A stretch of 64,000 bases of DNA from an uncultured Actinomycetota bacterium (lineage in GTDB: Bacteria > Actinomycetota > Actinomycetes > Mycobacteriales > Mycobacteriaceae). The DNA lies in NCBI GenBank assembly GCA_963804905.1, contig CAWDSB010000008.1:192053-256052 (forward strand). The letters run 5' to 3'. Position 1 is the first letter of the stretch, and each line of letters starts with the position of its first letter. The position numbers were made by a program, and so were the translations under genes. Under the pieces are notes generated by a model, which saw only the letters and a list, made by a program, of their open reading frames with translations, ran no database searches and was not told where the DNA came from. Positions 3,779 to 63,511 of the stretch are shown one piece after another.

Positions 3779-4705
3779 CTAGGGGCGGAGCACAATTTTT
3801 CCCTTCGTGTGCCGTTGCTCCAGCGTGCGGAACGCTTTTCGCACGTCATCGAGCGCGAACACCTCGGCGATCGGCACCTCCAGGCGGCCGTCGGCGACCA
3901 GCGCCGCCAGTCCGGCCAGCACGTCGGCGTTGGCGGCGTCGGCGTTACCCGCGGTCTGCACGTTGAACCGCTCGGCGCCGGCGAAGTCGATGATCGTGTC
4001 CACCCGTGTGGGAGCGATGCCCAATTCGTCGACCGCCAGCTCGACGTAGCCGCCGCCGAAGAAGTCCAGGAACGCGTCGATCCGGCCGGAGGGAGCGGCA
4101 GCCCGCAGCCGCCCGGCCAAGTCGTCGCCGTAGTTCACCGGGATGACACCATGCGCGCGCAGCCACTCGTCGTTCGACGGGCCTGCGATGCCCAGCACCC
4201 TGGCACCGGCCTCGGTCGCGAGCTGCACCGCGATCGAACCAACGCCCCCGGCGGCGCCCGCCACGGCCACCACGTCGCCTTCGGACAGGTCGACGGCACG
4301 TACGGCGGCGTAGGCGGTTGTGCCCGCCACATACAGCGCACCTGCCGCTTCCCACGTCACCGCTGCGGGTTTGGCCGTCAGATTCACCGCCGGTACGACG
4401 ACCAGTTCGGCGTGGCTCGACCGGTTCTCGGAGAAGCCCAGAACTTCATCGCCTGCGGTGAATTCGTCGACGCCCGGCCCTGTTTCGGCGACGACACCCG
4501 CGAGGTCGCTACCCTGTCCGGACGGAAAGGTCGTCGGGAAGATGTCCCGCATGAGCCCTTTGCGGATGGCCGCCTCGCCGGGGTTGATGCCTGCGGCCCT
4601 GACCTCGACGAGGACCTCGCCGGCCTTGGGTGCAGGTCGGTCGACGTCGCGCACGTCGAGCACGTCGATGTCGCCGAACTGATCGAATCGCACTGCCTTG
4701 GTCAT
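3779..4705 (-). CDS. Zn-dependent alcohol dehydrogenase / quinone oxidoreductase (MDR superfamily)
   Basis: ATG at 4705 begins MTKAVRFDQFGDIDVLDV, followed by a GAAGGVG Rossmann motif. The ORF-track frame continues upstream without a stop into a MarR-like sequence. Confidence 0.75.
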   Translation of the reverse strand: MTKAVRFDQFGDIDVLDVRDVDRPAPKAGEVLVEVRAAGINPGEAAIRKGLMRDIFPTTFPSGQGSDLAGVVAETGPGVDEFTAGDEVLGFSENRSSHAELVVVPAVNLTAKPAAVTWEAAGALYVAGTTAYAAVRAVDLSEGDVVAVAGAAGGVGSIAVQLATEAGARVLGIAGPSNDEWLRAHGVIPVNYGDDLAGRLRAAAPSGRIDAFLDFFGGGYVELAVDELGIAPTRVDTIIDFAGAERFNVQTAGNADAANADVLAGLAALVADGRLEVPIAEVFALDDVRKAFRTLEQRHTKGKIVLRP

Positions 4706-5117
4706 GACAGTTACCAACGGCACAGCCCTCGAGCTATTCCCCCGGGCTGATGCGCACACCGATTTTTTGCGCCGCCATGAGGTCCGCAGCACCTTGACCA
4801 GTACTTCCAACTCCGAATTCGGGTAACGCAGCAGGAAGTCGCGAAGCCCCTGAGCCATCTCGTCGTGCAGCTGACGGTGGGCTTCGGTGACGAGTTCACC
4901 GTCGGGGGTCAGCGTGAGTTCGATCTCCTTGCGGTTGCCCGGTATTGGTGAGCGCACCACCAGACCGGCCTCGACGACGCGTTGCACGTGTTTGGAGACG
5001 GTGCCCTTCAAGCTGCCCCGACCGCGATGCCAACCCGACCAGGCTGACGGGTCCGTCGGCGATGCCGGCCCGTAGATGCATCGACAGCGTCGGCAGGAAA
5101 CGCACGCCGTCGGGCAC
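4706..5117 (-). pseudogene. MarR-family transcriptional regulator, frameshifted, with no in-frame stop before the downstream oxidoreductase
   Basis: N-terminus lies in ORF 4896..5117 (…LVGLASRSGQ). Winged-HTH and C-terminus lie in another frame (KGTVSKHVQRVVEAGLVVRSPIPGNRKEIELTLTPDG…). Frames switch near a GGGG/CCCC run at about 5015. An alternative stop (tag) exists in the third frame after an A6 run at about 4765. Confidence 0.5.
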
Positions 5118-5135
5118 TCGAGTGGTGCTGACTCC

Positions 5136-5912
5136 TTAGCCGAAGCGACCCGAGATGTAATCCTCCGTCGCCTTCTCGGTCGGGTTGGAGAAGATCTTCT
5201 CGGTGTCGTCGATCTCGATGAGCCGACCGGGCTTGCCGGTCGCCTCGAGGTTGAAGAACGCGGTCTGGTCGCTCACCCGCGCGGCCTGCTGCATGTTGTG
5301 CGTGACGATCACGATGGTGTAGTCCTGCTTGAGCTCAGCGATCAGATCCTCGATCGCCAGCGTCGAGATCGGGTCCAGCGCCGAGCACGGCTCGTCCATC
5401 AGCAGCACGTCGGGCTGCACGGCGATCGCACGCGCGATGCACAGCCGCTGCTGCTGACCACCCGAGAGCCCGCCGCCGGGCTTGTCCAACCGGTCCTTGA
5501 CCTCGGTCCACAGGTTCGCGCCCTTGAGTGACTTCTCGGCGACCTCGTCGAGGGTCTTCCTGCTGCGCACGCCCTGCAGCTTCAGCCCTGCCACCACGTT
5601 GTCGCGAATCGACATGGTGGGGAACGGGTTTGGCCGCTGGAACACCATGCCGATGGTCTTGCGGACACCGACCGGGTCGACCCCGGCGCCGTAGACGTCC
5701 TCGCCGTCGAGCAGCACCGAACCGTCGACATGCGCACCGGGGATCACCTCGTGCATCCGGTTCAGGGTCCGCAACACCGTCGACTTTCCGCAGCCGGACG
5801 GACCGATGAACGCCGTAACGCTGCGCGGCGGGACCGACATCGACACGTCGGCAACCGCGTGGAACGACCCGTAGTAGATGTTGACGTCCTTGAGGTCAAG
5901 ACGCTTGGCCAT
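5136..5912 (-). CDS. pstB: Phosphate ABC transporter ATP-binding protein PstB
   Basis: Walker [13 protein letters not shown] signature LSGGQQQRL, Walker B LLMDEP. Last gene of the pstSCAB operon. Confidence 0.9.
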
Positions 5913-7942: not shown

Positions 7943-9073
7943 CTAGGCAATTGCGTCGACGGACTTCAGGAGTCGCTCCTTGAATGCGTCCGGCAGCGGA
8001 ACGTAACCCGCCGCAGAAAGGTTGGCCTGGCCCTGGTTGGCCGCGACCGTCACGAACGACTTCACGCCTGCGGCGGTGTCCGCGTCATAGCCTTTGGAGC
8101 AGACGATCTCGTAGGTCGCCAGCATCAGCGGGTAGACGCCGGCCTCCTTGCTCGCGTACAGCGCGTTCAGGTCGAGCGTCAGGTCCATGCCTTCGGCCTT
8201 GAACTTGGCGGTGTCGACGGCCTTCTGGGTCGACTCGTCGGTGAGCTCGACGGCCCCGCCCCCGCTGTCGATCTGAGCCATCTTCAGGCCGGCCTGCTGC
8301 GCGAAACCCTTCTCCACGTAGCCGATGGAACCCGGCGTGGCCTGGATGGCCTGCACGACACCGGCCGACTTCTGCGCACCCTCACCAGCGCCGCCCTGGA
8401 ACTCCTTGCCGGCGCCCTTGGTCCACGCCGGCGGTGCGGAAGCAGCCAGGTATTTCTGGAAGTTGTCCGTGGTGCCCGAGGAATCCGAACGGTAGATCGG
8501 CTTGATGTCGGCGTCGGGCAGGGTAGCGCCGGGGTTCAGCTCGGCGATCGCCGGGTCGTTCCACTTCTTGATCTGGCCCTGGAAGATCTTGGCCAGCACG
8601 TCACCGTTGACGACGAGCTTGTCGGCGCCCTCGACGTTGAAGGCCATCGCCACAGGCCCGAACACCAGCGGGAGGTTCCACGCCGGGTTGCCGCCGCAGC
8701 GTTCCGCGGCCTTTCCGTTCTGATCGTCCCTTAGCGCCGAGTCGGAGCCGGCGAAGTCGACCTGTTTGGCGATGAACTGGTCAACGCCTGCGCCGGAGCC
8801 GGTCGGGTTGTAGGCCAGCGTCTTGCCCGCGCAGACCTGACCCCAGACCTTGTTGAACTCCGCGATCGCGTTCTGCTGAGCCGTCGAACCCTCGGCGGTA
8901 AGCGAGTTCTTGCCGCCGCACTCGGCGGCGGACGATGCGGTGCCCGACGCACCGGAGGAACTGCTGCTCGTTCCGGCGTTGTTGTCGCTGCCGCATCCGG
9001 ACAGCGTCAGCGCGACAAGTGCCGTCGCAGAGAGTGTCGTACCGAACGCCTTGCCAATGCTGTTGAGCTTCAC
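7943..9073 (-). CDS. pstS: Phosphate-binding lipoprotein PstS
   Basis: Signal peptide plus lipobox LTLSGCGS. PBP-like fold motifs. First gene of the pst operon. Confidence 0.9.
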   Translation of the reverse strand: MKLNSIGKAFGTTLSATALVALTLSGCGSDNNAGTSSSSSGASGTASSAAECGGKNSLTAEGSTAQQNAIAEFNKVWGQVCAGKTLAYNPTGSGAGVDQFIAKQVDFAGSDSALRDDQNGKAAERCGGNPAWNLPLVFGPVAMAFNVEGADKLVVNGDVLAKIFQGQIKKWNDPAIAELNPGATLPDADIKPIYRSDSSGTTDNFQKYLAASAPPAWTKGAGKEFQGGAGEGAQKSAGVVQAIQATPGSIGYVEKGFAQQAGLKMAQIDSGGGAVELTDESTQKAVDTAKFKAEGMDLTLDLNALYASKEAGVYPLMLATYEIVCSKGYDADTAAGVKSFVTVAANQGQANLSAAGYVPLPDAFKERLLKSVDAIA

Positions 9074-9160
9074 TTAATCCCACTTTCCCTTGACGGCTTT
9101 TGACGGCTTCAGACTCTCCGGCAACGTATGCGGCCGCGGTGGACGCCCGAGGGATGGAAA

Positions 9161-9185
9161 GTGAACGAACGGTGAACACGTTCAG
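9161..9185 (-). promoter_or_regulatory. Candidate RegX3/Pho-box-like repeat about 90-110 bp upstream of pstS
   Basis: GTGAAC-n5-GTGAAC direct repeat with 11-bp periodicity, overlapping the TGAACACGTTCA inverted repeat. Confidence 0.35.
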
Positions 9186-9205
9186 CTAATTTCCAGCTCG
9201 TGCGG

Positions 9206-10902
<1,697 letters not shown>

Positions 10903-10933
10903 CGGGCCCTCCAGGCGCAGGTCAGATATTTAC

Positions 10934-10947
10934 GGACAGCTCTGTCC
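10934..10947. promoter_or_regulatory. 14-bp palindrome GGACAGCTCTGTCC in the glnR/lmeA divergent intergenic region
   Basis: Perfect 6-bp arms with a 2-bp spacer. Same half-site as the palindromes at 59338 and 59496. Confidence 0.25.
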
Positions 10948-11041
10948 GGGATACCTCCCAGATTCTTGGCCGACATCTGGCCGTTACCGGTGCCATAACG
11001 ATAACCCGTCACCTGCTGATTAGCCGCGCCGAGCGGGCGCA

Positions 11042-11866
11042 GTGGACGGGGTGGGCCAGAATGTCCGGGTGCGCAAGCTGCTTATTGGGTTGATATCGGC
11101 CGTGGCCGCGGTGGCGATCGCGGCGGTCGGTGTCGACTTCGGCGCGGCGATCTATGCCGAATACCGCCTGGCCAGGGCGGTTCGCAGCGAAGCGCAGCTC
11201 ACCTTCGATCCGTGGGTCGGCATTATCGGGTTCCCCTTCATTTCGCAGGCGAAGGATCGCCACTACGGCCAGATCGAGATTCGCGCCAATGGCGTCGATC
11301 ACCCCGTCGTGGGCAAGGCGTCGTATGAGGCCACCCTGTACTCGGTCGGCCTGCCCAAGAACTCCTGGCTGATCGACGCGAACACCGAACTGCCCGTGGG
11401 CAAGGCGGAAAGCCGCATCATCATCGACTCCACCCATGTCGGCCGCTTCATGGGCATCCCGGACCTGTTGGTAGAGGCACCGGCCAAAGAAACCAACAAC
11501 GCCACCGGCGGCACCACCGAGTCCGGTATCTCCGGCAACAAGGGACTGGTTTTCACCGGCACCCCGAAGGCCGCCGAGTACAACGAGAAAGTCAGCGTGT
11601 CAGTGGACCTCTCCGTATCAGGCCAGAACCAGACCACGCTCGTGTTCACCGCCACCGGCGTACTCACCGGCGCGGGCACCGCCGACCAGCAGGTGCCCGA
11701 GGACAAGACGGCCGCCGTGCTGGCCGCCTTCACCACCACCATGCCGGGGCTGAAGCTGCCCTTCGGCATCGCGCCGACCAGCGAGGGAGCGCGCGGATCC
11801 GACGTCATCATCGAGGGCATCGCCGAGGGAGTAACCATCACGCTGGATGAGTTCACTCAATCATGA
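11042..11866 (+). CDS. lmeA: DUF2993-family cell-envelope protein (LmeA/Rv0817c-like)
   Basis: N-terminal TM/signal anchor (LLIGLISAVAAVAIAAVGV). Conserved exported protein divergent from glnR, as in M. smegmatis and Mtb. Confidence 0.55.
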   Translation: MDGVGQNVRVRKLLIGLISAVAAVAIAAVGVDFGAAIYAEYRLARAVRSEAQLTFDPWVGIIGFPFISQAKDRHYGQIEIRANGVDHPVVGKASYEATLYSVGLPKNSWLIDANTELPVGKAESRIIIDSTHVGRFMGIPDLLVEAPAKETNNATGGTTESGISGNKGLVFTGTPKAAEYNEKVSVSVDLSVSGQNQTTLVFTATGVLTGAGTADQQVPEDKTAAVLAAFTTTMPGLKLPFGIAPTSEGARGSDVIIEGIAEGVTITLDEFTQS

Positions 11867-12294
11867 GCCCTTCGCTGGTTGCGGTCATCGCCGTGCTGAT
11901 CGCGGCGTTCGGGGTGGCGTACGTGATCAACAGGATGATCGCCCTGCGGGCCGGGCTGCTCAAGGAAACCCACGAGACGGCAGGCTCAGAACCCGTCGAC
12001 ACCTCCGATCTGGGCCTATCCGGGACGGGACCGACGATCGTGCATTTCAGCGCGGTGTGGTGCGGACCGTGTGCAGGGGTGCGGCGGATCGTCAATCAGG
12101 TATGCGGCGACCTGCCCGCGGTGGCGCATGTGGAGATCGACATGGACGCCAATCCGGCCGCGGCCCGGCGACTTTCGGTGCTGTCGCTACCGACGACGTT
12201 CATCTTCGACGCCGACGGCCGGCAGCGATACCGCACCACCGGCGTTCCGACCGCCGCTGACCTGCGGTCGGCGCTGGAACCGCTGTTGGCTTGA
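11863..12294 (+). CDS. Thioredoxin-like protein (ThiX-like)
   Basis: WCGPC active site. N-terminal TM helix. Rv0816c position. Confidence 0.7.
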   Translation: MSPSLVAVIAVLIAAFGVAYVINRMIALRAGLLKETHETAGSEPVDTSDLGLSGTGPTIVHFSAVWCGPCAGVRRIVNQVCGDLPAVAHVEIDMDANPAAARRLSVLSLPTTFIFDADGRQRYRTTGVPTAADLRSALEPLLA

Positions 12295-13848: not shown

Positions 13849-13849
13849 T

Positions 13850-14152
13850 ATGTGCTCTGCACCGAAGCAAGGACAGACGCTGCCGGCCGGCGTTGACCTG
13901 GAGAAGGAGACGGTGATCACCGGTCGCGTCGTGGACGGCTCCGGTCAGTCCGTCGGCGGGGCGTTCGTGCGCCTGCTGGACGCCTCCGACGAGTTCACCG
14001 CCGAGGTCGTCGCGTCGGCCACCGGTGACTTCCGGTTCTTCGCCGCACCCGGCACGTGGACGCTGCGTGCGCTGTCGCCTGCGGGCAACGGCGACGCCAG
14101 CGTGGCACCGTCGGGCGCGGGCATCCATGAGGTCGACGTCAAGGTCGCCTGA
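13850..14152 (+). CDS. SseC-like DUF1416 protein
   Basis: 100-aa ORF starting at ATG 13850, 1 nt after the rhodanese stop. Lies inside a longer out-of-frame ORF in the track. Rv0814c position. Confidence 0.65.
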   Translation: MCSAPKQGQTLPAGVDLEKETVITGRVVDGSGQSVGGAFVRLLDASDEFTAEVVASATGDFRFFAAPGTWTLRALSPAGNGDASVAPSGAGIHEVDVKVA

Positions 14153-15276: not shown

Positions 15277-15400
15277 GCCAGAACGGGCGCCTTCCCCACC
15301 TCAACGAGGCGCTTCTTCCGCGCCAGCACGATCACCGACCACGAACAGTGACGTGGCCCAGATATGGGTCGGCCCCCGAGCCGCTGTTCCTTGGTTGGAC

Positions 15401-15423
15401 AAAAACCGAGGGGCTCGGGGGCC
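15401..15423 (-). terminator. Rho-independent-type terminator on the minus strand, nested inside a 12-bp-stem hairpin (15371-15423)
   Basis: ccgag-ggg-ctcgg stem-loop followed on the minus strand by TTTTT. Outer arms ggcccccgagcc / ggctcgggggcc. Confidence 0.4.
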
Positions 15424-15792
15424 GGGTGACTGCGGGGAATTCGCCAGCGCGCGCAGGTGATCCCCTGGCGCTGCTAGCTCGCAGCCACCTCACATGTCCA
15501 TAAGTCAATCAATTTGTCGGACCACCTCCTTCCCTGTGTACGAGCGAGGTTATCACTGACTCTGAAGGGGCCGGTAGCGATTTATCACCGGTGTGGTGCG
15601 GTTGCAGGCCGGCCCTTTACGGGTCGCGCTCAGCCGGCCGGGCAGACCTCCTGGCCCTCACAGGTACCGCCGAATTCGGCGTCGACGCCTGGTCCTCGGC
15701 CTGGGCTGGCCGGAGCCGCGGGGCAGGTGGCGCTGGGTTGGCGCCCGGCGCACCTGGTTGCCCGACGCCTGTATTCGTCGGTCGTTACGTTG

Positions 15793-16677
15793 TCAGCGAT
15801 CGCTCACGATGGCGGCGTCTACGAGCTCGGACAGTTCTGCGGCCATCGGTGCGGGTCGCAGCGGCTTGCCGTCGAGGGTGTGCACCCGGGCCGCCAGCGT
15901 GATGCTCGATACCAGCCAAACACCTTGGGCAGCAATGAGATCAGTGGTCCGCAGTGCCCGATAGTCGCAGTCGTAGCCCTTGTTGCGTGCCACCTCGAAC
16001 AGGGCCTGCTGAGTGGTGCCGCGCAGGATGGGATACCACGGCGGCGGGGTGAGCAGCCCGAGCCTGCCGTCCATTTCCGTGGCGATCACCACCGTCGACC
16101 GCGGACCCTCCAGGACATAACCGTCGGAGCTGACGAAGATCACGTCGCCTGCGCCGTGACGCTCGGCGTGACGCAGCGCCGCCATGTTCACCGCGTAGGA
16201 CAGCGTCTTGGCGCCGGCCAACAGCCACGGCGTGTCGTCGGCACCGGCGGCGGGCAGGCCGCGGGCAAGCGTCAGCGCGGCGACCCCGTCCCTGCGGGCC
16301 GCGGCCACCCTGTCGGGCACTGCGCCGATCATCGCGAACCCCGTCGGGGGTGATCCGCTTTCGCGTCCCCGGCTGTAGATCAGCCGCAGCACTCCCTCTT
16401 GGCCCCCCTGGTCGGTCCAGCTCGCCGTCGCGGTGGCGACCGCTGCACGCCACCGCTCCAGGTCGGGTGCGGGTAGATCCATCAGCCGCGCCGATTGCGT
16501 CAACCGACCCAGGTGGGCCTCGAGCAGGCACGGGCGCCCGTCGCGCACCAGAAGCGAATCGAAGATCCCGTCGCCGCGCACCACGGCCAGATCGTCGGCG
16601 TGCAGGAGTGGTGTCTGCGGATCCTGCAACTGCCCGTCGAGCGTGACCACAATCCCCGGTTCGCCCGCCATGGCCAA
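15793..16677 (-). CDS. Class IV aminotransferase / aminodeoxychorismate lyase (PabC-like, Rv0812-like)
   Basis: 294 aa. Fold-type IV PLP enzyme motifs. Synteny with Rv0811c-like neighbour. Confidence 0.8.
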   Translation of the reverse strand: MAMAGEPGIVVTLDGQLQDPQTPLLHADDLAVVRGDGIFDSLLVRDGRPCLLEAHLGRLTQSARLMDLPAPDLERWRAAVATATASWTDQGGQEGVLRLIYSRGRESGSPPTGFAMIGAVPDRVAAARRDGVAALTLARGLPAAGADDTPWLLAGAKTLSYAVNMAALRHAERHGAGDVIFVSSDGYVLEGPRSTVVIATEMDGRLGLLTPPPWYPILRGTTQQALFEVARNKGYDCDYRALRTTDLIAAQGVWLVSSITLAARVHTLDGKPLRPAPMAAELSELVDAAIVSDR

Positions 16678-22906: not shown

Positions 22907-22922
22907 ACCTTAGTGTCTCAAG

Positions 22923-24119
22923 GTGTTTGTCGACCGCCACACGCCGCCCTACAAGGTTGCAGGGGCGGTGCTCATGGTGCTCGTTGCGGTAGTGGTGAGT
23001 TTCGTTTATTTGCAGTTCCGCGGCGAGTTGGGGTCGAAAACCCAGCTGACACTGTTGTCCTCGCGCGCCGGCCTCGTGGTGGATCCCGGCTCGAAGGTGA
23101 CCTACAACGGCGTTGAGATCGGCAAGGTGGCCGCCGTCGAGCACGTGAATGTCGACGACACGGCCAAGGCCGAGCTGACGCTGAACGTCGAACGCCGCTA
23201 CATCTCCTTGATTCCGGCCAATGTGATCGCCGACATCAGGGCGACGACGGTGTTCGGCAACAAGTACATCTCCTTCAGATCACCGAAAGACCCGACTTCA
23301 CGGCGGATTTCGAGCCGGGACTTGATCGAGGCGTCGTCGGTGACGACGGAGTTCAACACGCTGTTCGAAACCGTGATGTCGATCGCGGACCAGGTCGATC
23401 CGATCAAGCTCAACGCCACGTTGACCGCGACGGCCCAGGCGCTGACTGTGTGGGCGAGCGGTTCGGGAACTCGCTCATCGACGCGAACCGGATACTGGAC
23501 GATCTGAACCCGCGGATGCCACAGATCCGCGCCGCCACCGAGGGGGTGGCCGATCTCGCCGACGTGTACGCAGCCGCCTCCCCCGATCTGTGGGACGGCC
23601 TCGAGAACGCCGTGACCACCGCCCGCACGTTCAACGACCAGCGCGAAAACATCGACACGGCACTGATGGCGGCGATCGGTTTCAGCAACACGGCCGCCGA
23701 CAGCTTCGAACGCGGCGGCCCGTATCTCGTGCGCGGCAGCGAGGATCTGCTGCCGACGACGAAGCTGCTCGACGACTACCGGGACATGATCTTCTGCACC
23801 GCCCGCAACTACGCGGGTGGGCCGAGGATCGCCAAGGTGCTCGGCGGCGCAACGGCTACGCGCTGCACTCGTCGGGCACCATCCTCCCGCCGGGCAGCGT
23901 TCGTCTACCGACAACCTGCCGCGGGTGAACGCCAGGGGCGGACCAGAGGGTCGGCCCGGCTGCTGGAAGAAGGTCACCAAGTACCTGTATCCGTTCCTGT
24001 ATCTGGTGATGGACACCGGTGTCAGCATCGCCCCGTACAACCACTTGGAGATCGCGTCGCCGATCGCCACCGACTACGTCTGGGGCCGGCAGTTCGGCGA
24101 GCCCACAATCAACCCGTAA
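22923..24119 (+). pseudogene. Orphan Mce-family (MceA-like) gene disrupted by three frameshifts
   Basis: N-terminal MlaD domain in frame 0 (22923..about 23460). Middle section in frame 2 (…KLLDDYRDMIFCTARNY). NGYALHSSG in frame 1. C-terminal TDNLPRVNARGGP…YVWGRQFGEPTINP in frame 0. No yrbE or other mce genes adjacent. Confidence 0.6.
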
Positions 24120-24757
24120 CCGTTGGTCCACACACACCGGCGCGCCGCTGGACGACAGACGCGGCGACCGCACCCGCTTCGTTGATGGCGAGGTGCGCCA
24201 GCATCGGGGCCGCCAGGCTGCCGGAGCACTCGCGCAGCAGTGCGAAGAGCCAACCCGCGACGCCGGTGACCAATACGGTGCCGATCACCGGCTCATCGGT
24301 GCCACGGGCATCGGCGATGTGCGACAGGCCGAATGCCAACGACTGCACCAACCGGCCGACCGTCGACCCGAATGCGTCTGCCGCGACGGTGCCCAAGCGC
24401 CGCGCGGAACGCAGCCTCCTCCGACCACACCGTGCCGATAGGGATGCGCACCAGCAGCCACGGCGCCTGCGGGCGCGGCAGATCGCGGTCGGCCATCGCT
24501 ACCCGCACGGGCGGCGCCGCCGTCGACGCCGCCACCCCCAAAGCCACCGGCGCGGCCACCGCCAGCCCGAGTCGCAGACCCGACCACAATGCGGGTGGCC
24601 GCAGGCCGAGCGGCGCGCCGGTCGCTGCGACGAGTCCGGCACCGAGGAGCGCGTGGATGAGGGCGCGCAAGCGCAATGGTATCCGCGGACCGACAAGCCC
24701 GTTCCAGCCGACCAGCGCCGCTGCCAATGCGAGCGCCCGGATTCGCTTGGCGTGCAC
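24109..24757 (-). pseudogene. CPBP-family (CAAX-type) intramembrane metalloprotease with one frameshift
   Basis: Motif 1 EEAAFR in ORF 24293..24757. Motifs FGLSH and HLAIN in ORF 24109..24396 (+1 frame). Frame change at a GGG run near 24385. Confidence 0.5.
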
Positions 24758-26520
24758 TAATACTCGGGTCCGTCATCGGCTTCGGTCTTCTCCAGCGCCA
24801 ACCGAATGCGTTCGGTGTCCTCGGTGGTCCAGCCGTCGGGGGGCGCGACAGCGGCCCAGCCGTCGAGGACGTACTCGCCGTAGTTGTGGCCGTGCCCGCC
24901 GGGAACCGACGCCGCATTGGTCATGTCGGCGGCGACCTGCCAGAACGTGACGATGGGGTACCAGCGCATCAGTGGCGGCCGGTCCCTGCCCGGCGGTTCC
25001 TTCAGCCAGTCCGGCCGGGTGAACATCAGATCCTCCGACCACCAGACGATCGGGTCCGAAGAGTGCTGCAGGAACAGCACCCGCGTGCCATCCCATGGCG
25101 CATCCGTGTCGGACGCGATCTCTGCGGCGCCGGTGGCCTGCGAGAACCGGACGGTGCGTCCGTTGTCGTAGCGTGGCTCGACTTCGGGGGTCCCGGGGTC
25201 ACGCCGGACGGTGATCGCCCTCCACAGCGGGCTGGCGTTGGGCGGGCCCACCCAGAGCACGGACGAGAACCCCATCCGCGCGATGTCGGGCAGCCAGCTG
25301 AACGCACCCTGGCCTGCCATGGAGCCGAGGCTCTCGCCGTAGAGCATCAGCTTGGGCCGTCGGTCCGGCGATAGCCGCAGCCACCAGTCGTGGATCGCGT
25401 CGATCATCGTCCGGCCGGAGTCCATCGACTTCTCGCGGTCGCCCAAAAACGAAATCCAGCTCGGCAGATACGAGTACTGCGATCCGACCAGCGCGGTGTC
25501 ACCGTTGTACATCAACTCCAGCGCCCGGGCGGCGACGGGGTTGATCCACCCGGTGCCGGTCGTCGGAATGATGACCAGCACCTTGCGTTCGAACGCGCGC
25601 GTGCGGTCCAGCTCGCGAACCAGGATGTCCGCACGCTCCTGATCGGTGCCTGCGGTCTGCAGCCCCGCGTAGACCCGGATGGGCTCCTTGGCGGGGCCGC
25701 CGTTGAGCCGGGACAGCTCACTCGTGTGCGGGCCGGTGGCGACGAAGTTGCGGCCCTGAAACCCCAGCGTGTCCCACGGTGCGAAAGACATTGGGCTGCC
25801 GGATCGTTCGCGATCCATCGGTTGGATGATCCCGGCCCGGGTGGTGGTGTTCTGTGGTTGGAACACCCGGTTGGCGCCTGCCAGGAACCCGCGGATCGCC
25901 ACGCCGTTGATCAGTGTGATCGCCAGCACGACGACGATGGCGGTGCCGATGAACAGCGCAACCTCGTCATGCAGGTGCCAGCGCCGGATGAAGTACCGGG
26001 CCATCGTCTTGATCAGGTCGATGATCACTCGCGCAGCGGACACGCATATGCCTCCGGCGAGCACGGCGATGATCAGGGTGCGGAGATAGCCGGCAGTTCC
26101 CGGACCTTCCATTCCCGCTCACGGCGGACACCTGGCGCTGCCATGCCGCGGCCGGGATCAGCATCAGCACGCTCGCGGTCGCCGACAGCGCGACGGTGGC
26201 CGCCTTCAGCCAGTAGAGCACCCGCTTCGACGGAGGCCACCATTCCCGGCGTTGTAACACGAAGCGGCGCACCATTTTTCCGGAGAACACGCCGATCCCG
26301 TAGCCGATGGCCGCATTGAGCCCACCGATCAGACCCTGAAACAGCCAGTCGCGCGGCAGTAGTGACGGCGTCAGCGACAGGCAGAAGAACAGCGCGCCGA
26401 ACGCGACGCCGACGAAGTCGAGACGCACAAGCCTCCACGCCCATACCAGCAGCGGATGGCGTTGCTTGCGCTCGTGGGTTGCGGCGACCGGTTCGCCGGT
26501 GATGTCGTCGGTCGGAACAC

Positions 26521-31085: not shown

Positions 31086-32121
31086 ATGGTGCCCGATCCC
31101 CTGCCGCAGCCGGTTCTGGCGCCCTTGACACCCGCCGCCATCTTCCTGGTGGCCACGATCGACGACGACGGTGAATCAGCGGTCCACGATGCGTTGCCGG
31201 ACATCTCCGGGCTGGTGCGCTCGATCGGCTTCCGCGATCCGACCAAGCGGCTGTCGGTGGTCACGTCGATCGGCTCCGATGCGTGGGATCGGCTGTTCTC
31301 CGGACCACGCCCGGCCGAACTGCACCCGTTCATCGAAATCCAGGGCGGCCGCCATGACGCACCCGCGACGCCGGGTGATCTGCTGTTCCACATCAGGGCC
31401 GAGTCGATGGACGTCTGCTTCGAGCTGGCGTCCAAGCTCGTCGATGCGATCTCCGGAGCGATCACGGTCGTCGACGAAGTGCACGGCTTCAAGTTCTTCG
31501 ACAACCGCGACCTGATGGGTTTCGTCGACGGCACCGAGAACCCAGACGGCCCAATCGCGTTGTCCGCCACCCAGATCGGTGACGAGGACTCCGACTTCGC
31601 GGGCGGCAGCTACGTGCATGTCCAGAAATACGTGCACGATATGGAAACGTGGAACTCGCTGTCGACCGAGGAGCAGGAGCGGGTCATCGGGCGAACCAAG
31701 CTCGACGACATCGAACTCGACGACGCGGTCAAGCCGGCCAACTCGCACCTCGCGCTCAACGTCATCGAGGACGACGACGGCAACGAACTGAAGATCGTGC
31801 GCCACAACATGCCGTTCGGCGAGGTGGGCAAGGGCGAGTTCGGCACGTACTACATCGGTTACTCGCGCACCCCCGCGGTCACCGAGCGGATGTTGAACAA
31901 CATGTTCATCGGTGATCCACCGGGAAACACCGACCGAATCCTCGATTTCTCGACGGCCTTGACCGGCGGCATGTTCTTCACTCCCACCGTCGACTTCCTT
32001 GATGACCCACCGCCACTGGCGGGTTCGGGTCCCGAGGACGATGCCCCGGCCACCCCCACTCGTTTCCCCGTCCCGCGACGGATCACTCGGCATCGGCAGC
32101 CTGAAAGGAACTCACCGATGA
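31086..32121 (+). pseudogene. DyP-type peroxidase (encapsulin cargo); a single-base frameshift immediately upstream of its cargo-loading peptide fuses it in frame to encapsulin in this assembly
   Basis: DyP core down to …FFTPTVDFLDDPPPLAGSGPEDDAPATPTRFPVP. The canonical targeting peptide DGSLGIGSLKGTHR and a TGA (32119-32121) are in the +1 frame. The zero frame instead reads through into the encapsulin ATG. Confidence 0.75.
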
Positions 32122-32915
32122 ACAACCTTTACCGCGATCTAGCTCCGATCACCGAAGAGGCTTGGGCGGAAATCGAATTGGAGGCGACGCGGACTTTCAA
32201 GCGGAATATCGCCGGAAGGCGCGTCGTCGATGTCAGTGAGCCCGGTGGTCCCGTCACCGCGGCGATCAGCACCGGACACCTGCTCGATGTCGTCCCGCCC
32301 GGCGACGGCGTGGTGGCCCATCTGCGCGAAAGCAAGCCGCTGGTGCGGCTGCGGGTGCCGTTCACGGTGTCGCGGACCGACATCGACGACGTGGAGCGCG
32401 GTTCGCAGGACTCGAACTGGGATCCGGTCAAGGATGCCGCCAAGAAGCTGGCGTTCGTGGAGGACCGGGCCATCTTCGAGGGCTACGAGGCGGCGTCCAT
32501 CGACGGTATCCGCAATTGCAGCTCCAACCCGGCCCTCGCGTTGCCCGGCGATGCCCGCGAGATCCCCGACGTCATCGCGCAGGCGCTGTCCGAGCTTCGG
32601 CTCGCCGGTGTCGACGGCCCGTATTCGGTGCTGCTGTCTGCCGACGTGTACACCAAGGTCAGCGAGACCACCGAGCACGGCTATCCGATCCGCGAGCACC
32701 TCAACAGACTCGTGGACGGAGACATCATCTGGGCGCCCGCGATCGACGGCGCGTTCGTGCTGTCCACCCGCGGCGGTGATTTCGACCTGCAGCTGGGCAC
32801 CGACGTCTCGATCGGGTACCTGACGCACGACGCCGAGACGGTGCAGCTCTACCTGCAGGAGACGCTGACGTTCGTGTGCTACACCGCGGAAGCGTCGGTG
32901 GCGCTGACGCCCTGA
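32118..32915 (+). CDS. Family-1 encapsulin shell protein (Cfp29-like)
   Basis: 265 aa from ATG 32118 (MNNLYRDLAPITEEAWAEIE…), HK97-fold encapsulin. ATGA overlap with the frame-corrected DyP stop. Confidence 0.85.
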   Translation: MNNLYRDLAPITEEAWAEIELEATRTFKRNIAGRRVVDVSEPGGPVTAAISTGHLLDVVPPGDGVVAHLRESKPLVRLRVPFTVSRTDIDDVERGSQDSNWDPVKDAAKKLAFVEDRAIFEGYEAASIDGIRNCSSNPALALPGDAREIPDVIAQALSELRLAGVDGPYSVLLSADVYTKVSETTEHGYPIREHLNRLVDGDIIWAPAIDGAFVLSTRGGDFDLQLGTDVSIGYLTHDAETVQLYLQETLTFVCYTAEASVALTP

Positions 32916-37845: not shown

Positions 37846-37867
37846 GAGACGCCAATGTAGCGGTCGG

Positions 37868-43951: not shown

Positions 43952-44491
43952 TTGTGTGCGTTTAGGAGCGCTCAGCGCTCTGTTCTGTTTCGGGACATCG
44001 CTGACGGTGATCGAGGCTGCTGTGCGACGGAGCGGCGGTTCACAGTTGATGGACTCTGCGCTGCAGCATCGGATCGAGTTGCGCGGCCATGGCACGCGCA
44101 CCTCCGCAGTACGGGCCGATGGGGCTCACCCGCAGCGCGCCTCCTACTGCAGGCTGCTTCAGACGGCGCGCGGTCAGAGGAGCGACTGCTTATCCGGCTG
44201 CTGAAGGCCGCGCGCATCACGGGCTGGCGTGCGAATTTCCCGCTGACCGGTTAACGGATCGACGTGGCGTTCCCGAAGCAGAAAATAGCGATCGAGGTCG
44301 ACGGCTGGGCCTTCCACTGGGGGCACCCTCCGCTTGCGGGGGACGATCAGGAGAACTTCCAGAATGACCGTGAGCGGCAGAACAACATCGCGCTGAATGG
44401 CTGGCAAGTGCTGCGCTTCACCTGGCTGGACCTGACGGAGCATCCACAGCGTGTGATCGCCGAGATCAAGTTCGCGATCGGCTCGCGATGA
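43952..44491 (+). pseudogene. DUF559-family protein remnant (N-terminally truncated, at least two frameshifts)
   Basis: Pieces …QLMDSALQHRIELRG… in frame of ORF 42834..44204, …EERLLIRLLKAARITGWRANFPLTG in 43952..44254, and FPKQKIAIEVDGWAFHW…NGWQVLRFTW in 44264..44491. Confidence 0.5.
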
Positions 44492-45389: not shown

Positions 45390-45865
45390 GGTGCGATGAG
45401 CAGTTCGGCCGACATCACCACCGGCAGGTTCAGTGGCAGTGCGGCCACTCCGATCGCCGTGCGCGCATGCCGTCCGTGCACGCCGAACACCTCGATCAGC
45501 AGGTCTGAGACCGGATTGAGAACCGCGGTCGTCTGCGGGTAACCGGGGTCCGCATTGACGAAGCCGCTCACCATCACCCAGTCGCGGATGCGGTCGAGTG
45601 ATCCCAGCGTGCTGCGTAGCGCGCCCAACATGGCAAGCAAAGCCGCACGGGCCGATTGTTGAGCCTGCTCCAGCGACACTTCACTCGGCACCCGTCCGAA
45701 CGGCCCCGCTGGGGCACCGTCGGCCCGGAGAGGGCCATGGCCGCTGAGCACGCACCGATCCCCGACGACCCGCGCCCAGTCGAACGGAATCCGAACACCG
45801 CTGGGCAGCAATGGTTCCGGTGGCAACTGCAGCCCTATCTCGGCAACCCGCTGCTCGAAGGTCAT
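45386..45865 (-). CDS. RidA/YjgF-family protein
   Basis: Start at [12 protein letters not shown]. Confidence 0.7.
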
Positions 45866-47097
45866 GCGCCCAGTTCGACGATCAGATGGCGGATGCCGGT
45901 GTGCCTGTTGCTCCGCGTCCACTCCACCGGCTTGACCACCCGGGCCGACGAGAACCTGCCGAGCAGTTCCTCGAACAGCACCCGCAGCTCCAGCCGGGCA
46001 AGGTTAGCCCCAAGGCAATAGTGAATGCCCTGTCCGAAACCCAAGTGCGGGTTGGGCTTCCGGGCGACATCGAAGCGATCGGCATTGTCGAACGCAGCGG
46101 CATCGCGATTGGCCGAACCCTCCCAGATCTGCACTTTCTGTCCGGCCTTGATTGCGCATCCGCCCAACTCGACATCACGGGTCGCCGTGCGCCGCTTCGA
46201 CGGCGACGGCGACGTCCAGCGCACCATCTCCTCGACGGTGGTCGACAGCAGCGACAAGTCGGCACGCAACAGCGCGAGCTGATCGGGATGGTCGGCGAGC
46301 GCGAGCAGCCCACCCGCAACCGCATTGCGCGTTGTCTCCGCACCCGCGCTGAACAGCAAGCTGAAGAACAGATACAGCTCCATTTCCGAAAGGGGGGACG
46401 GGGCCAGTCCGTCCTCATTGAGAGTCGCGTTCGCGAGGACTGACAGCATGTCGTCGGTCGGCTCGGACCGCTTTGCGGAGATAAGCTCCTGCCCGTAGGC
46501 GTACATCCGCGTTCCGGCCTCCTCGGCCGACAACTGCCCCACCGCCGCCTTGCGGGAGCCGCCGAAGTCGAACTGCGGCTCGATGGCCTCGAACAGCCAA
46601 TGCCGTTCGGAATCAGGCACTCCCAGCAGAATGCAGATCATCTGCATCGGCAGCTCGGCGGCCACGTCGACCACGAAGTCGATCGGCTCGCCGGGCTCGA
46701 CCGCATCCAGCAGCCGGCTGGCGCGGGCACGCAGATCGTCCTCGACACGGCGGATCATCCGCGGTGTCAGCCCGGAGCTCACCAGTCGCCGAATCTGCGA
46801 ATGCCGCGGGTCGTCCATCATGTTGAGCACCTGGCCCGCGATCGCCAGGTCCTGCAGCAGCGTTCCACCGTACGGGCGCTCACCGCCGGTCACCGACGAA
46901 TATGTCTCCGGATCACGAAGCACCGCAAGAGTTTCGGCATGGGTGGCGACCGACCAGAAGCCCTCGCCGTCGGGAGTGTTGTCGGTGGGCTCATGCCAGT
47001 ACACCGGCGCCTCGCGGCGGTGCACCTCGAACAGGTCGTGCGGAAAACCGTTGGCGAAGTTGTCCAGATCGGTGAAGTCGATTTTCGCCAGCGTCAC
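45862..47097 (-). CDS. Cytochrome P450 (cyp126-like, adjacent to purB)
   Basis: ExxR and heme loop [10 protein letters not shown]. 411 aa. Confidence 0.85.
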
Positions 47098-52639: not shown

Positions 52640-53884
52640 ATGTATGGTCTAAAGATGGCGACGACGCAGACCTGTCCATTCGGCGACGGATTCGACTTCA
52701 CCGACCCCGATGTTCTCGAACACGGCATACCGGTTGCCCAGTTCGCCGAACTGCGCAAGACCGCTCCTGTGTGGTGGAACGAGCAGCCGGAGTCGATCTT
52801 CAACGACGGCGGTTACTGGGTGATCAGCCGCCACGAAGACATCAAGGCCATCTCCCGCGACGGCGACCTGTGGTCGACGAATCGCAAGGGCGTCGTGATG
52901 CGCATGCCCGACGGCACCACGCCCGATCAACTCGAGCTGACCAAGGCGCTGTTGATCAATCACGACGCGCCGGCTCACACCCGGTTGCGAAAGCTGGTGT
53001 CGCGGTTGTTCACGCCGAGGGCGGTGGCCACGCTCGAAGAGAAGCTCGCAATCGCGGCGCGTGAGATCGTCGCCGCCGCACGGCAGAAGGAGAGCGGGAA
53101 CTTCGTCGACGACATCGCGATGAGCCTGCCGCTGCTGGCGATCGCGGACCTGCTCGGTGTGCCCGAGGCGGACCGGGAAAAGCTGTTCCACTGGACGAAC
53201 TCGATCATGAACACCGACGATCCCGACTTCCAGACGGACTACGCGGCCGCGAACGCCGAGCTGATGGGCTACGCCTACAGCATGGCCGAGGAGCGCCGCC
53301 GTTGCCCGGCCGACGACATCGTCACCCGGCTGATCGAGGCAGACCTGGACGGGGAATCGCTCGACGATGTCGAGTTCGCGTTCTTCGTGATCCTGCTCGC
53401 GGTCGCGGGCAACGAGACAACCCGCAACGCGATGACGCACGGCATGAACGCGTTCTTCGAGAACCCGGAGCAATGGGAGCTTTTCAAGCGCGAGCGACCC
53501 GACACCGCCGCCGACGAGATCGTGCGTTGGGCGACGCCGGTGCACTGCTTCCAGCGCACCGCGTTAGCCGACACCGAACTCGGCGGCGTGACCATTCGCG
53601 AGGGACAGCGCGTCGGCTTGTTCTACAGCTCCGCGAACTATGACGACGCCGTCTTCGACCGGCCCTTCGAGTTCAACATCCTGCGGGACCCCAACCCGCA
53701 TCTCGGATTCGGTGGCAACGGCGCGCACTTCTGCATCGGCGCCAACCTGGCCCGGATGGAGATCAAGCTCATCTTCAACGAGATCGCCGACCAGATCCCG
53801 AACATCTCGAAAACCGCGGAGCCGCAACGGCTTCGGTCGGGGTGGCTCAACGGCGTCAAGCGGCTCGCGGTCTCCTACCAGTAA
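52640..53884 (+). CDS. Cytochrome P450
   Basis: Heme loop FGGNGAHFCIGANLAR, ETTRN I-helix region. Alternative start at 52655 (MATTQ). Confidence 0.85.
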   Translation: MYGLKMATTQTCPFGDGFDFTDPDVLEHGIPVAQFAELRKTAPVWWNEQPESIFNDGGYWVISRHEDIKAISRDGDLWSTNRKGVVMRMPDGTTPDQLELTKALLINHDAPAHTRLRKLVSRLFTPRAVATLEEKLAIAAREIVAAARQKESGNFVDDIAMSLPLLAIADLLGVPEADREKLFHWTNSIMNTDDPDFQTDYAAANAELMGYAYSMAEERRRCPADDIVTRLIEADLDGESLDDVEFAFFVILLAVAGNETTRNAMTHGMNAFFENPEQWELFKRERPDTAADEIVRWATPVHCFQRTALADTELGGVTIREGQRVGLFYSSANYDDAVFDRPFEFNILRDPNPHLGFGGNGAHFCIGANLARMEIKLIFNEIADQIPNISKTAEPQRLRSGWLNGVKRLAVSYQ

Positions 53885-60120: not shown

Positions 60121-61335
60121 GTGACCGTTCCCACCAGCGGCGTGATCCTCGACCCGTACGACTACGACTTTCACGAGGATCCGTATCCCTACTACAAGCG
60201 GCTGCGCGACGAGGCTCCGCTCTACCACAACGAGGAGCTCGGTTTCTGGGCGCTGTCGCGGCACCAGGACGTGCTGCAGGGGTTCCGCAACAGCACAACG
60301 CTTTCCAATCGCGACGGCGTGTCACTCGATCCCATCTCCCGCGGACCGCACGCCAGCAAGACGATGTCCTTCCTGGCGATGGACGACCCCGCCCATCTGC
60401 GTCTGCGCACCCTGGTATCGAAAGGCTTCACGCCGCGCCGGATCCGGGAGCTCGAACCACGGGTCACCGAGCTGGCCGTGCAGCATCTCGACGTGATGCT
60501 GGAGAAGGCACGAACCGACTCAACCGTCGACTACGTCGCGGAATTCGCGGGCAAGCTGCCGATGGATGTCATCTCCGAGCTGATGGGCGTGCCCGTGGAG
60601 GATCGCGATCGCATCCGCGCCATGGCCGACGGCGTCATGCATCGCGAGGACGGCGTCAATGACGTGCCCAAGTCCGCGATCGAGGCGTCGATCAACCTGA
60701 TGGTCTACTACCAGGACATGATCGCCGAACGCCGGAAGAGGCCGGCCGACGACCTCACGACGGCGCTGCTGGAGGCCGAGATCGACGGCGACCGGCTGAC
60801 CGACGAGGAAGTGCTGGGGTTCTTGTTCCTGATGGTGATCGCAGGCAACGAGACCACCACCAAACTGCTTGCCAATGCAGCATTTTGGGGCCACAGGAAC
60901 CCCGACCAGCTGACCCCGATCTATTCCGACCTGCAGCGGATCCCGCTGTGGGTCGAGGAGACGCTGCGCTACGACACGTCCAGTCAGCTCTTGGCGCGCG
61001 TGGTCTCCGGCGAGCTGAACCTCTACGACACCACCGTTCCCGAGGGTGACGTGCTGCTGCTGCTGCCCGGCTCCGCGCACCGCGACGAGCGGGTGTTCGA
61101 CGATCCCGACGCTTTTGTCATCGGACGTGAGATCGGCTCGAAGCTCATGAGTTTCGGTAGCGGAGCCCACTTCTGCCTCGGCGCGCACCTGGCACGGATG
61201 GAAGCCCGGGTGGCGCTGGCCGAACTGTTCAAGCGAATCCGCGGTTATGAGGTCGACGAGGCCAACGCTGTCCGCGTCCACTCCAGCAGCGTCCGCGGAT
61301 TCGCCCACCTGCCCATGGCAGTGGAGGTCGTGTAA
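60121..61335 (+). CDS. Cytochrome P450 (cyp123-like)
   Basis: Heme loop FGSGAHFCLGAHLAR. 404 aa. Confidence 0.85.
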   Translation: MTVPTSGVILDPYDYDFHEDPYPYYKRLRDEAPLYHNEELGFWALSRHQDVLQGFRNSTTLSNRDGVSLDPISRGPHASKTMSFLAMDDPAHLRLRTLVSKGFTPRRIRELEPRVTELAVQHLDVMLEKARTDSTVDYVAEFAGKLPMDVISELMGVPVEDRDRIRAMADGVMHREDGVNDVPKSAIEASINLMVYYQDMIAERRKRPADDLTTALLEAEIDGDRLTDEEVLGFLFLMVIAGNETTTKLLANAAFWGHRNPDQLTPIYSDLQRIPLWVEETLRYDTSSQLLARVVSGELNLYDTTVPEGDVLLLLPGSAHRDERVFDDPDAFVIGREIGSKLMSFGSGAHFCLGAHLARMEARVALAELFKRIRGYEVDEANAVRVHSSSVRGFAHLPMAVEVV

Positions 61336-62162
61336 TGCCGCGCTTCAAACCACTGCCCGAGCGCAGGCCCGCGATCGTCGCAGGCGCCTCGTCGGGCATC
61401 GGCGCCGCCACCGCCACCGAGCTCGCCGCACGCGGTTTTCCGGTTGCACTGGGGGCGCGCCGCGTCGAGAAGCTCGACGATCTCGTCGGCAAGATCCAGG
61501 CCGAAGGTGGCGAGGCTGTCGGCTTCCACCTCGACGTGACCGATCCCAACTCGGTCGAATCCTTTGTCTCGCAATCGGTCGACGCACTCGGCGATATCGA
61601 GATACTGGTCGCAGGAGCGGGTGACACCTACTTCGGCAAGCTGGCCGACATCACCACCGACGAGTTCGAGTCGCAGCTGCAGATTCACCTGGTTGGGGCC
61701 AACCGGCTGGCCGCCGCCGTGCTGCCCGGCATGATCGAGCGGCAACGTGGTGACCTCATCTTCGTCGGCTCCGATGTGGCGCTGCGCCAGCGCCCGCACA
61801 TGGGCGCCTACGGCGCCGCGAAGGCTGCCCTCGTCGCCATGGTGACCAATCTGCAGATGGAACTGGAGGGCACCGGCGTCAGGGCGTCTATCGTGCACCC
61901 CGGCCCGACGAAGACGAACATGGGTTGGAGCCTGCCCGCCGAACTGATCGGCCCGGCGCTCGAGGACTGGGCCAAGTGGGGACAGGCCCGTCACGATTAC
62001 TTCTTGCGCGCATCGGATCTCGCGCGCGCGATCGCGTTCGTCGCCGAGACGCCGCGAGGCGGCTACATCGCCAACATGGAACTTCAGCCGGAAGCGCCGC
62101 TGGCGACCGCGCCGAAAGAACGTCAGCAACTCAAGCTTGGAGAGGAGGGGATGCCGTCATGA
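61335..62162 (+). CDS. SDR-family oxidoreductase (Rv0765c-like)
   Basis: AGASSGIGAATA Rossmann motif. YGAAK. ATGA overlaps on both sides. Confidence 0.8.
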   Translation: MPRFKPLPERRPAIVAGASSGIGAATATELAARGFPVALGARRVEKLDDLVGKIQAEGGEAVGFHLDVTDPNSVESFVSQSVDALGDIEILVAGAGDTYFGKLADITTDEFESQLQIHLVGANRLAAAVLPGMIERQRGDLIFVGSDVALRQRPHMGAYGAAKAALVAMVTNLQMELEGTGVRASIVHPGPTKTNMGWSLPAELIGPALEDWAKWGQARHDYFLRASDLARAIAFVAETPRGGYIANMELQPEAPLATAPKERQQLKLGEEGMPS

Positions 62163-63511
62163 CCACCGCGATCGTTCCCCGCGTTTCGGGTGGCGAAGAG
62201 GAACACGGCCACCTCGAAGAGTTCCGCACCGACCCGATCGGGCTGATGCAGCGCATCCGCGACGAATGCGGCGACGTCGGATGGTTCCAGCTGGTCGACA
62301 AGCACGTCATCTTCCTGTCGGGCGCCAACGCGAACGAGTTCTTCTTCCGTTCCGCCGACGAGGATCTCGACCAGGCCGAGGCCTACCCGTTCATGACGCC
62401 GATCTTCGGCAAGGGTGTGGTGTTCGACGCCAGCCCGGAACGGCGCAAGGAGATGTTGCACAACTCGGCGCTGCGCGGTGAGCAGATGAAGGGCCACGCC
62501 GCCACCATCGAGGGCGAAGTCAAGAAGATGATCGCCAACTGGGGAGACCAGGGCGAGATCGACCTTCTCGACTTCTTCGCCGAGTTGACCATCTACACCT
62601 CGACGGCGTGCCTGATCGGGCTGAAGTTCCGCGAGCAGCTCGACCACCGGTTCGCGGAGTACTACCACGAACTCGAACGCGGCACCGATCCCCTCTGCTA
62701 CGTCGACCCGTACCTGCCGATCGAGAGCTTCCAGCGCCGCGACGAGGCACGCGTGAAACTCGTTGCGCTGGTGCAAGAGATCATGGACGGCCGCCTTGCC
62801 AACCCGCCGAAGGACAAGGGCGACCGCGACATGCTCGATGTGCTCGTGTCGATCAAGGACGACGACGGCAACCCTCGCTTTTCAGCAGACGAAGTCACCG
62901 GGATGTTCATCTCGCTGATGTTCGCGGGCCACCACACCAGCTCGGGCACATCGGCATGGACGCTCATCGAGCTGATCCGACACCCGGAGATCTACGCCGA
63001 GGTGCTCGCCGAGCTGGAGGAGCTCTACGCCGACGGCCAAGAGGTCAGTTTCCATGCGCTGCGGCAGATTCCGAAGCTCGAGAACGTCCTGAAGGAGACC
63101 TTGCGACTGCACCCGCCGCTGATCATCCTGATGCGGGTCGCCAAGGGCGAGTTCGAGGTCGAGGGCTTCCCGATCCACGACGGTGACTTCGTCGCCGCCT
63201 CTCCGGCGATCAGCAACCGTATTCCCGAAGACTTCCCCGACCCCGACGCGTTCAATCCCGACCGCTACGATAAGCCGGACCAGGCCGACATCGTCAATCG
63301 GTGGACGTGGATCCCGTTCGGCGCGGGTCGACACCGGTGCGTCGGTGCCGCGTTCGCGACCATGCAGATCAAGGCGATCTTCTCGGTTCTGTTGCGCGAG
63401 TATGAGTTCGAGATGGCGCAGCCGTCCGACAGCTACCGCAACGACCATTCGAAGATGGTGGTGCAGCTGGCCCAGCCCGCCAAGGTGCGCTACCGCAGGC
63501 GAACCACCTAG
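62159..63511 (+). CDS. cyp51: Sterol 14-alpha demethylase CYP51
   Basis: Start at ATG 62159 (MTTAIVPRVSGGEEEHGHLEEFRTDPIGLMQRIRDECGDVG…). Near-collinear with Mtb CYP51 including heme loop FGAGRHRCVGAAFA. The 78-codon upstream extension in the track was discarded. Confidence 0.9.
   Translation: MTTAIVPRVSGGEEEHGHLEEFRTDPIGLMQRIRDECGDVGWFQLVDKHVIFLSGANANEFFFRSADEDLDQAEAYPFMTPIFGKGVVFDASPERRKEMLHNSALRGEQMKGHAATIEGEVKKMIANWGDQGEIDLLDFFAELTIYTSTACLIGLKFREQLDHRFAEYYHELERGTDPLCYVDPYLPIESFQRRDEARVKLVALVQEIMDGRLANPPKDKGDRDMLDVLVSIKDDDGNPRFSADEVTGMFISLMFAGHHTSSGTSAWTLIELIRHPEIYAEVLAELEELYADGQEVSFHALRQIPKLENVLKETLRLHPPLIILMRVAKGEFEVEGFPIHDGDFVAASPAISNRIPEDFPDPDAFNPDRYDKPDQADIVNRWTWIPFGAGRHRCVGAAFATMQIKAIFSVLLREYEFEMAQPSDSYRNDHSKMVVQLAQPAKVRYRRRTT

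Follow-up and report, generated by a model that had tools for sequence, protein, structure and literature searches.

A stretch of mycobacterial DNA in which about 12% of the genes are broken raises a simple question: is the organism losing genes, or do the breaks come from the assembly of its sequence? We will consider a window of 64,000 nucleotides (nt), the whole stretch of DNA analysed, from contig CAWDSB010000008.1. Eight of its genes have their reading frame interrupted, with a total of 11–12 frame-breaking insertions or deletions (indels). They code for a MarR-family regulator, an orphan mce protein, a CPBP membrane protease, an Abhydrolase_9 membrane hydrolase, a DyP peroxidase, oligopeptidase B (ptrB), an aldehyde dehydrogenase (aldA) and what remains of a DUF559 protein. 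A first-pass annotation, made from the sequence alone, hesitated between genuine decay of accessory genes and systematic sequencing error. We consider it likely that the frameshifts are mainly an artefact of assembly, to which ordinary pseudogenes are added.

Comparison with assemblies of the same species

Three assemblies of the same species, which we will call siblings, can be compared with the window. They have neighbouring accessions in the European Nucleotide Archive and contig names in the style of the Flye assembler (contig_NNNNN). L087 (ERZ25039584, contig_35415, 124 kb) is 96.3% identical in nucleotide sequence to the window over 18.5 kb; it was reached through a 361-residue fragment of ptrB which clusters with the cut-short ptrB of the window. 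L209 (ERZ25039575, 26 kb, 96.4% nucleotide identity) and L208 (ERZ25039579, 19 kb, 91–95%) were both reached through an identical purS protein. The sibling loci span DyP, ptrB and DUF559; the other five genes (MarR, mce, CPBP, Abhydrolase_9 and aldA) lie outside them. At the DyP and ptrB sites L081 was used as an outgroup. Two more relatives have assemblies of short-read style: L085 (94.4% nucleotide identity, 8.8 kb) and L110 (95.6%, 5.5 kb).

The insertion found in DyP at 32059 is missing from the three siblings and from L081, and the same is true of the insertion in ptrB at 41282: both are private to the window. The 361-residue ptrB fragment of L087 crosses the site of the window unbroken; its own breaks are near codon 137 and about 20 codons beyond the site of the window. 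Neither form of the ptrB site, having the extra C or lacking it, was matched in a scan of metagenomes. Among the three genes which the siblings span, only DUF559 has lesions common within the species. This remnant was mapped by tblastn with the DUF559 proteins of L081 and L082. All four assemblies, window included, have its 5' deletion; the −1 shift is found in the window, L209 and L208, while L087 has an inserted base of its own at that place. The in-frame TAA is private to the window, where the three siblings have TAC. Lesions which recur in this way from one assembly of the species to another make DUF559 with certainty a genuine pseudogene. The first-pass annotation had recognised it as broken, but missed both the loss of about 140 N-terminal codons and the in-frame stop.

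The siblings also have fragmented genes, among them purC, purQ, purB, ptrB, DyP and a FAD oxidoreductase. In the multiple alignment the window has 10 private indels, of which only 2 are in coding DNA; this makes about 0.5 per kb, against 1.8 in L087, 2.4 in L209 and 4.9 in L208. The rate climbs as the contigs shorten, shorter contigs being taken as a proxy for lower coverage. When the window is compared with L085 and L110, over the lengths given above, no coding indel is found: natural coding indels are thus rare at such divergence, and those of the siblings must be errors. Insertions make up 91 of the 130 private 1-nt indels of the siblings (70%); the inserted base is C or G in 76 of these 91 (84%) and adjoins the same base in only 27. 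The isolated shifts of the window, five in number, are of the same type: +1, C or G, outside homopolymers. The error profile of the siblings, made up mainly of single C/G insertions away from an identical base, is unlike the homopolymer deletions usual with Nanopore; it might come from the basecaller, the polisher or a mixture of strains.

A large set of soil metagenome-assembled genomes (MAGs) was built from Nanopore reads only, with Flye and one round of Medaka, and its authors checked for Nanopore-associated errors in MAGs of low coverage (PMC12313526). The GTDB records of this catalogue bear the same contig_NNNNN naming. Even with Nanopore R10.4, frameshift errors remain in bins of less than about 40x coverage unless these are polished (PMC9262707). 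The window itself comes from an unannotated, MAG-like record; we infer that its contig belongs to the same Nanopore/Flye-type project as the siblings.

Broken genes of the window

The lesions were called by blastx against the orthologues of relatives, by nucleotide alignments (MAFFT included) and by Pfam profiles; they are collected in Table 1. All eight genes named in the first-pass annotation are indeed frame-broken at or near the positions it gave, although it spoke of at least nine and its own list has eight. Adjacent blastx matches in differing frames are found for mce, CPBP, Abhydrolase_9, ptrB and aldA and nowhere else, and the coordinates of the Pfam profiles run continuously across the breaks. 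The lesions had all been described as 1-nt indels, but mce is an exception, since two 2-nt deletions make up its third shift.

Table 1. Frame-broken genes of the window, with the position and nature of their lesions
Gene	Coordinates	Strand	Lesions
MarR-family regulator	4735..5132	-	+1 in G-run (GGG to GGGG), 5012-5021; -1 in G-run (GGG to GG), 4779-4789
Orphan mce (MlaD + Mce4_CUP1)	22914..24119	+	-1 at 23447; -1 at 23849 (GAC to GC); -2 at 23896; -2 at 23909
CPBP / Rce1-like membrane protease	24109..24763	-	+1 at about 24396 (GCG[C]TTGGGC)
Abhydrolase_9 membrane hydrolase, about 580 residues	24757..26518	-	+1 at 26116-26118 (GTGA[G]CGGG)
DyP peroxidase	31086..32118	+	+1 at 32059-32061, in the variable C-terminal linker
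ptrB, oligopeptidase B, 714 residues	40251..42396	-	+1 at 41282 (+ strand CTCCT[C]CGGG)
DUF559 remnant	43998..44488	+	5' deletion of about 420 nt (140 codons); -1 at 44088; TAA at 44252-44254; 1-codon deletion; 8-codon insertion
aldA, aldehyde dehydrogenase, 489 residues	57845..59315	-	G inserted at about 58850 (GCC[G]ATC), inside GVVGA/ITPWNFP

Five of these genes (CPBP, Abhydrolase_9, DyP, ptrB and aldA) have one 1-nt insertion each; apart from this they are of full length and well conserved. CPBP goes from frame −1 to −2 when compared with seven relatives, and its insertion is the sole out-of-frame indel of the nucleotide alignment; the Pfam Rce1-like profile matches the 3' piece. Abhydrolase_9 shows the same change of frames against eight relatives, the nucleotide alignment agrees, and the Abhydrolase_9_N profile is divided between the two pieces (positions 1–80 on one, 82–208 on the other). 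In ptrB the frames change from −2 to −3; the rebuilt protein is full length and 90–95% identical to intact relatives. The ptrB gene of M. tuberculosis H37Rv is also split (ptrBa/ptrBb), in another position. In aldA the frames differ on either side of the insertion, and the alignment of 1470 nt with L083 and L084 has no other indel. The rebuilt protein is again full length; it has about 90% identity with over 100 intact homologues and keeps the ELGGKS and GQGC motifs. The insertions in CPBP, Abhydrolase_9 and aldA are missing from all the outgroups aligned, and by analogy these three sites would behave like those of DyP and ptrB.

A history which would fit these data is the following. The window would be part of a long-read metagenome-assembled Mycobacterium genome, with a consensus in which about one base in 10 kb is still wrong. 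The isolated +1 insertions, five in all, would have arisen while this consensus was being made and would not be mutations, so that the five genes are most likely intact in the organism. Ordinary genuine pseudogenes would stand alongside them: DUF559 certainly, mce probably, while MarR could go either way.

The errors in question would be of a particular kind. The window has 64 homopolymer runs of 5 nt, 7 of 6 nt and one of 7 nt, and no frameshift falls in any of the eight runs of at least 6 nt. The lesions had been placed mostly at homopolymer runs in the first reading, which is true of MarR only and perhaps of DyP; those of CPBP, Abhydrolase_9, ptrB, aldA and mce are not slips. The suspicion of systematic indel error is supported for most sites, but the mechanism consists of single C/G insertions outside homopolymers, not of miscalls in homopolymers as in 454 or Ion-type sequencing. 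Classic miscalls of homopolymer length (454, Ion Torrent or old Nanopore) would explain the G4 run of MarR at 5012–5021, and possibly DyP, which has C5 and C4 nearby. Given that the longest runs are all untouched, that most sites are not slips, and that sibling insertions seldom adjoin the same base, such miscalls are scarcely credible as a general cause. A motif shared by the insertion sites ([G]CG or CG[C]) was considered and left aside, since CG is common in DNA with 66% G+C.

DyP requires a separate comment. The peptide SRDGSLGIGSLKG, which targets it to the encapsulin, can still be read, but out of the DyP frame. The shifted frame continues into the encapsulin gene (32118–32915), giving a single open reading frame (ORF) of 609 residues (31086–32915, + strand) which contains the Pfam domains Dyp_perox_N, Dyp_perox_C and Linocin_M18. 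In L081 there are two separate proteins, DyP with 341 residues and encapsulin with 265; the genes are also separate in L001. The first-pass annotation had the frame correctly broken, although it put the break at about 32075, slightly downstream of its actual site. Fusions of cargo and shell occur in other encapsulin systems, and the uninterrupted passage of the DyP frame into the encapsulin ORF might suggest a functional fusion here, or more generally that the shifts are programmed or tolerated recoding events. However the coding sequence of the targeting peptide persists in another frame, and every relative, same species included, has the unshifted sequence at each of the sites: there is thus no conserved slippery site. 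The probability of such an explanation is practically negligible. Since no relative has the arrangement, we have rejected both a functional fusion of DyP with encapsulin and programmed frameshifting.

L087 also has a fused DyP-encapsulin ORF, with 478 residues. Its cause is different: an extra T beside the DyP stop codon. Fused calls at this locus are artefacts which recur.

Tests of gene decay

If all the lesions were genuine, the lineage would be at the beginning of a process of gene decay like that of Mycobacterium ulcerans or M. leprae, and its accessory functions would be disappearing. The proportion of broken genes is in line with this idea, none of the eight pur genes is affected and DUF559 is a real pseudogene. 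On the other hand none of the three siblings has the DyP or the ptrB break of the window. In a three-taxon relative-rate count the amino acid changes of the broken genes divide into 119 specific to the window and 109 specific to the relative, those of the intact genes into 411 and 445 (odds ratio 1.18, p = 0.26). This count, which uses relatives of 82–86% nucleotide identity, the closest usable, and is blind to very recent events, gives no signal of relaxed selection. No transposase or insertion sequence (IS) is found among the genes annotated through relatives and Pfam, in the window and in the syntenic relatives. The closest relatives derive from environmental metagenome assemblies, not from hosts.

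That core genes are uninterrupted, as first observed, holds for every gene with an orthologue in the relatives fetched. The argument for decay drawn from the restriction to dispensable genes is statistically weak (p about 0.04–0.34): five to eight random hits spare the pur genes with a chance of 0.18–0.34, and the whole core set considered by the first-pass annotation with a chance of 0.04–0.13, and core genes are not avoided to a significant degree. We find no support for gene decay across the lineage, and consider it very unlikely that all the lesions are genuine. Decay is nevertheless a correct description locally, for DUF559 and probably for mce. Comparison of orthologous loci gave a divided answer: private insertions in DyP and ptrB, shared lesions in DUF559.

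The five +1 insertions might also be real and specific to this soil strain, which would then have started only very recently to lose oligopeptidase B, the aldehyde dehydrogenase, the CPBP protease, the Abhydrolase_9 hydrolase and the packaging of DyP into encapsulin. We give this very little chance. If it were true, several hundred genes would be affected genome-wide, it would be a case of early reductive evolution outside any known host association, and the DyP-encapsulin fusion would be a by-product.

The mce and MarR genes

DUF559 and mce have several independent inactivating lesions; MarR has two. The orthologues of mce are intact in eight relatives (400–437 residues, by blastx), and its lesions were located by pairwise alignment with L001. 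The gene is read successively in frames 3, 2, 1 and 3, and there is also an in-frame deletion of 3 nt near 23815–23821. The segments between shifts are 72–80% identical to L001, like the flanks. Four deletions are found within 460 nt, about 10 per kb, which at the background rate of the window has p = 1.5e-7. We have rated mce apart from the error profile because its lesions are deletions only, two of them of 2 nt, and are clustered. It is probably a genuine pseudogene.

The MarR gene is read as three frame segments in a three-frame translation, with two changes in G-runs within 240 nt. The shift near 5015 had been noticed before; the second one, at 4779–4789, had not been listed. The rebuilt protein matches Pfam PF01047 across the 5015 junction with 27.3 bits (cut-off 24.6). 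The C-terminal peptide DLMxAxKxGVRISPGE* is kept in the MarR remnant of L086, which fixes the original 3' frame. As a consequence of the −1 shift the middle segment runs into the gene of a zinc alcohol dehydrogenase (ADH, 3779–4705), and a spurious ORF of 410 residues results (3779–5011).

The locus downstream of pstB is variable. The window has MarR and ADH (4400–5106), L086 has scraps of the N- and C-terminal parts of MarR before ADH (13943–14104), and in L085, with 94% identity, the place is taken by a convergent gene unrelated to them (8804–9531). MarR is expendable in this clade, since it is largely deleted in L086 and the locus is replaced in L085. The MarR lesions could be either an assembly error or a genuine pseudogene.

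Several points weigh against the mixture of artefacts and ordinary pseudogenes which we prefer. CPBP, Abhydrolase_9, aldA, MarR and mce were classed by analogy (type of indel, isolation) or by clustering, because they lie outside the sibling loci. Insertions which are missing from siblings with 96% identity are still compatible with real mutations specific to a strain. The insertion-biased profile outside homopolymers is not the textbook one for Nanopore, and the platform is deduced. Only non-essential genes are hit, a slightly surprising outcome if the errors were random (p = 0.04–0.34). Finally, the mce cluster could be a patch of locally low coverage or of mixed strains: at the worst sibling rate, 4.9 per kb, at least four events in 460 nt have p = 0.19.

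This last point leads to a wider alternative, in which everything save DUF559 is an assembly error, the mce cluster and both MarR shifts being due to a locally poor consensus (a dip in coverage or a mix of strains). With siblings at such rates four events in 460 nt are not rare, the mce segments between shifts resemble their flanks, and the MarR shifts are in G-runs. However the background of the window is only about 0.1–0.5 per kb, the mce lesions are all deletions, including two of 2 nt, whereas the sibling errors are dominated by 1-nt insertions, and MarR is expendable in the clade. We regard it as rather unlikely, though it deserves some weight.

Other features of the window and its relatives

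The window has a uniform composition, with 66% G+C. Its gene order fits the purine/pst region of Mycobacterium: pstSCAB, mshD, glnR, purM, purF, purL, pepC, DyP-encapsulin, purQ, purS, ptrB, purC, purB, purD, several P450s and aldA. A contig scan with purL gave a best identity, among the matches listed, of 93% in amino acids and 82% in nucleotides; none of the matches listed is of the same species. A degenerate lactB pattern gave 120 loci, of which L110 is the single close one (95–96%); it spans no frameshift site. Homologues of the rebuilt ptrB, of the rebuilt aldA and of pstS were found, intact and full length, with 90–96% identity, and one pstS is identical to that of the window save for its GTG start codon. 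Proteins of the window are recorded on a single NCBI and ENA contig of 333,349 bp, including products which exist only through the frameshifts: the N-terminal fragment of ptrB (491 residues), DyP-encapsulin (609) and the C-terminal fragment of Abhydrolase_9 (451).

A small RNA, Ms_IGR-5 (Rfam RF02471, 177 bits, full length), is found at 15364–15539 on the − strand, between the THAP4-haem-binding cluster and a class-IV aminotransferase gene. Its identity with L086 is 93%, against about 84% for the flanks. In L086, which is 84% identical, the genes for a DUF885 protein (585 residues) and a methyltransferase (225 residues) occupy 467–3112; they are missing at 15541–15793 of the window, where about 250 nt are left. 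A stretch of 28–31 nt at 37812–37847 is present in the window and missing in L087, L110 and L081: it lies just upstream of a FAD-binding oxidoreductase gene and was classed as non-coding. Four intact cytochrome P450 genes are found within 18 kb (45865–47097, 52640–53881, 60121–61332 and 62162–63508), with TetR regulators and short-chain dehydrogenases between them. In the public chromosome of Mycobacterium aurum LT549889 (L069, about 9962–11935), comparison with the window and other relatives suggests a frameshift close to the 3' end of purL.

Consequences for annotation

The value of these results is practical rather than biological. CPBP, Abhydrolase_9, DyP, ptrB and aldA should be counted as probably intact, and the 609-residue DyP-encapsulin and the MarR-ADH ORFs as artefacts of frame errors. 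It would be wrong to take pseudogene counts in unpolished MAGs of this sort as a sign of genome decay. Other assemblies of the species can serve as an internal control: a lesion which recurs in several independent ones, as in DUF559, is real, while a private +1 insertion is suspect.

Comparison with known systems

The reduced genomes of M. leprae and M. ulcerans resemble the window by the apparent density of pseudogenes, about one per 7–8 kb. They differ in that the lesions found here are unshared within the species, with no IS in the window and no relaxed selection, in an environmental organism. A closer parallel for a part of the lesions is found in the unitary pseudogenes of free-living bacteria, such as decayed DUF559/Vsr-like endonucleases. 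The truncation, frameshift and nonsense codon of DUF559, which are inherited, are of this type, and mce has several deletions, but such genes number only one or two in the 64 kb, a normal background and no sign of reductive evolution.

The remaining breaks are best compared with the consensus indels of long-read MAGs (Nanopore, Flye, Medaka), which are measured with IDEEL as truncated ORFs. There is one difference: here we find C/G insertions outside homopolymers, whereas homopolymer deletions are usually described. In other respects the likeness is close: isolated 1-nt indels split conserved genes, their positions differ between assemblies of one species and the short-read relatives are clean (PMC9262707; PMC12313526).

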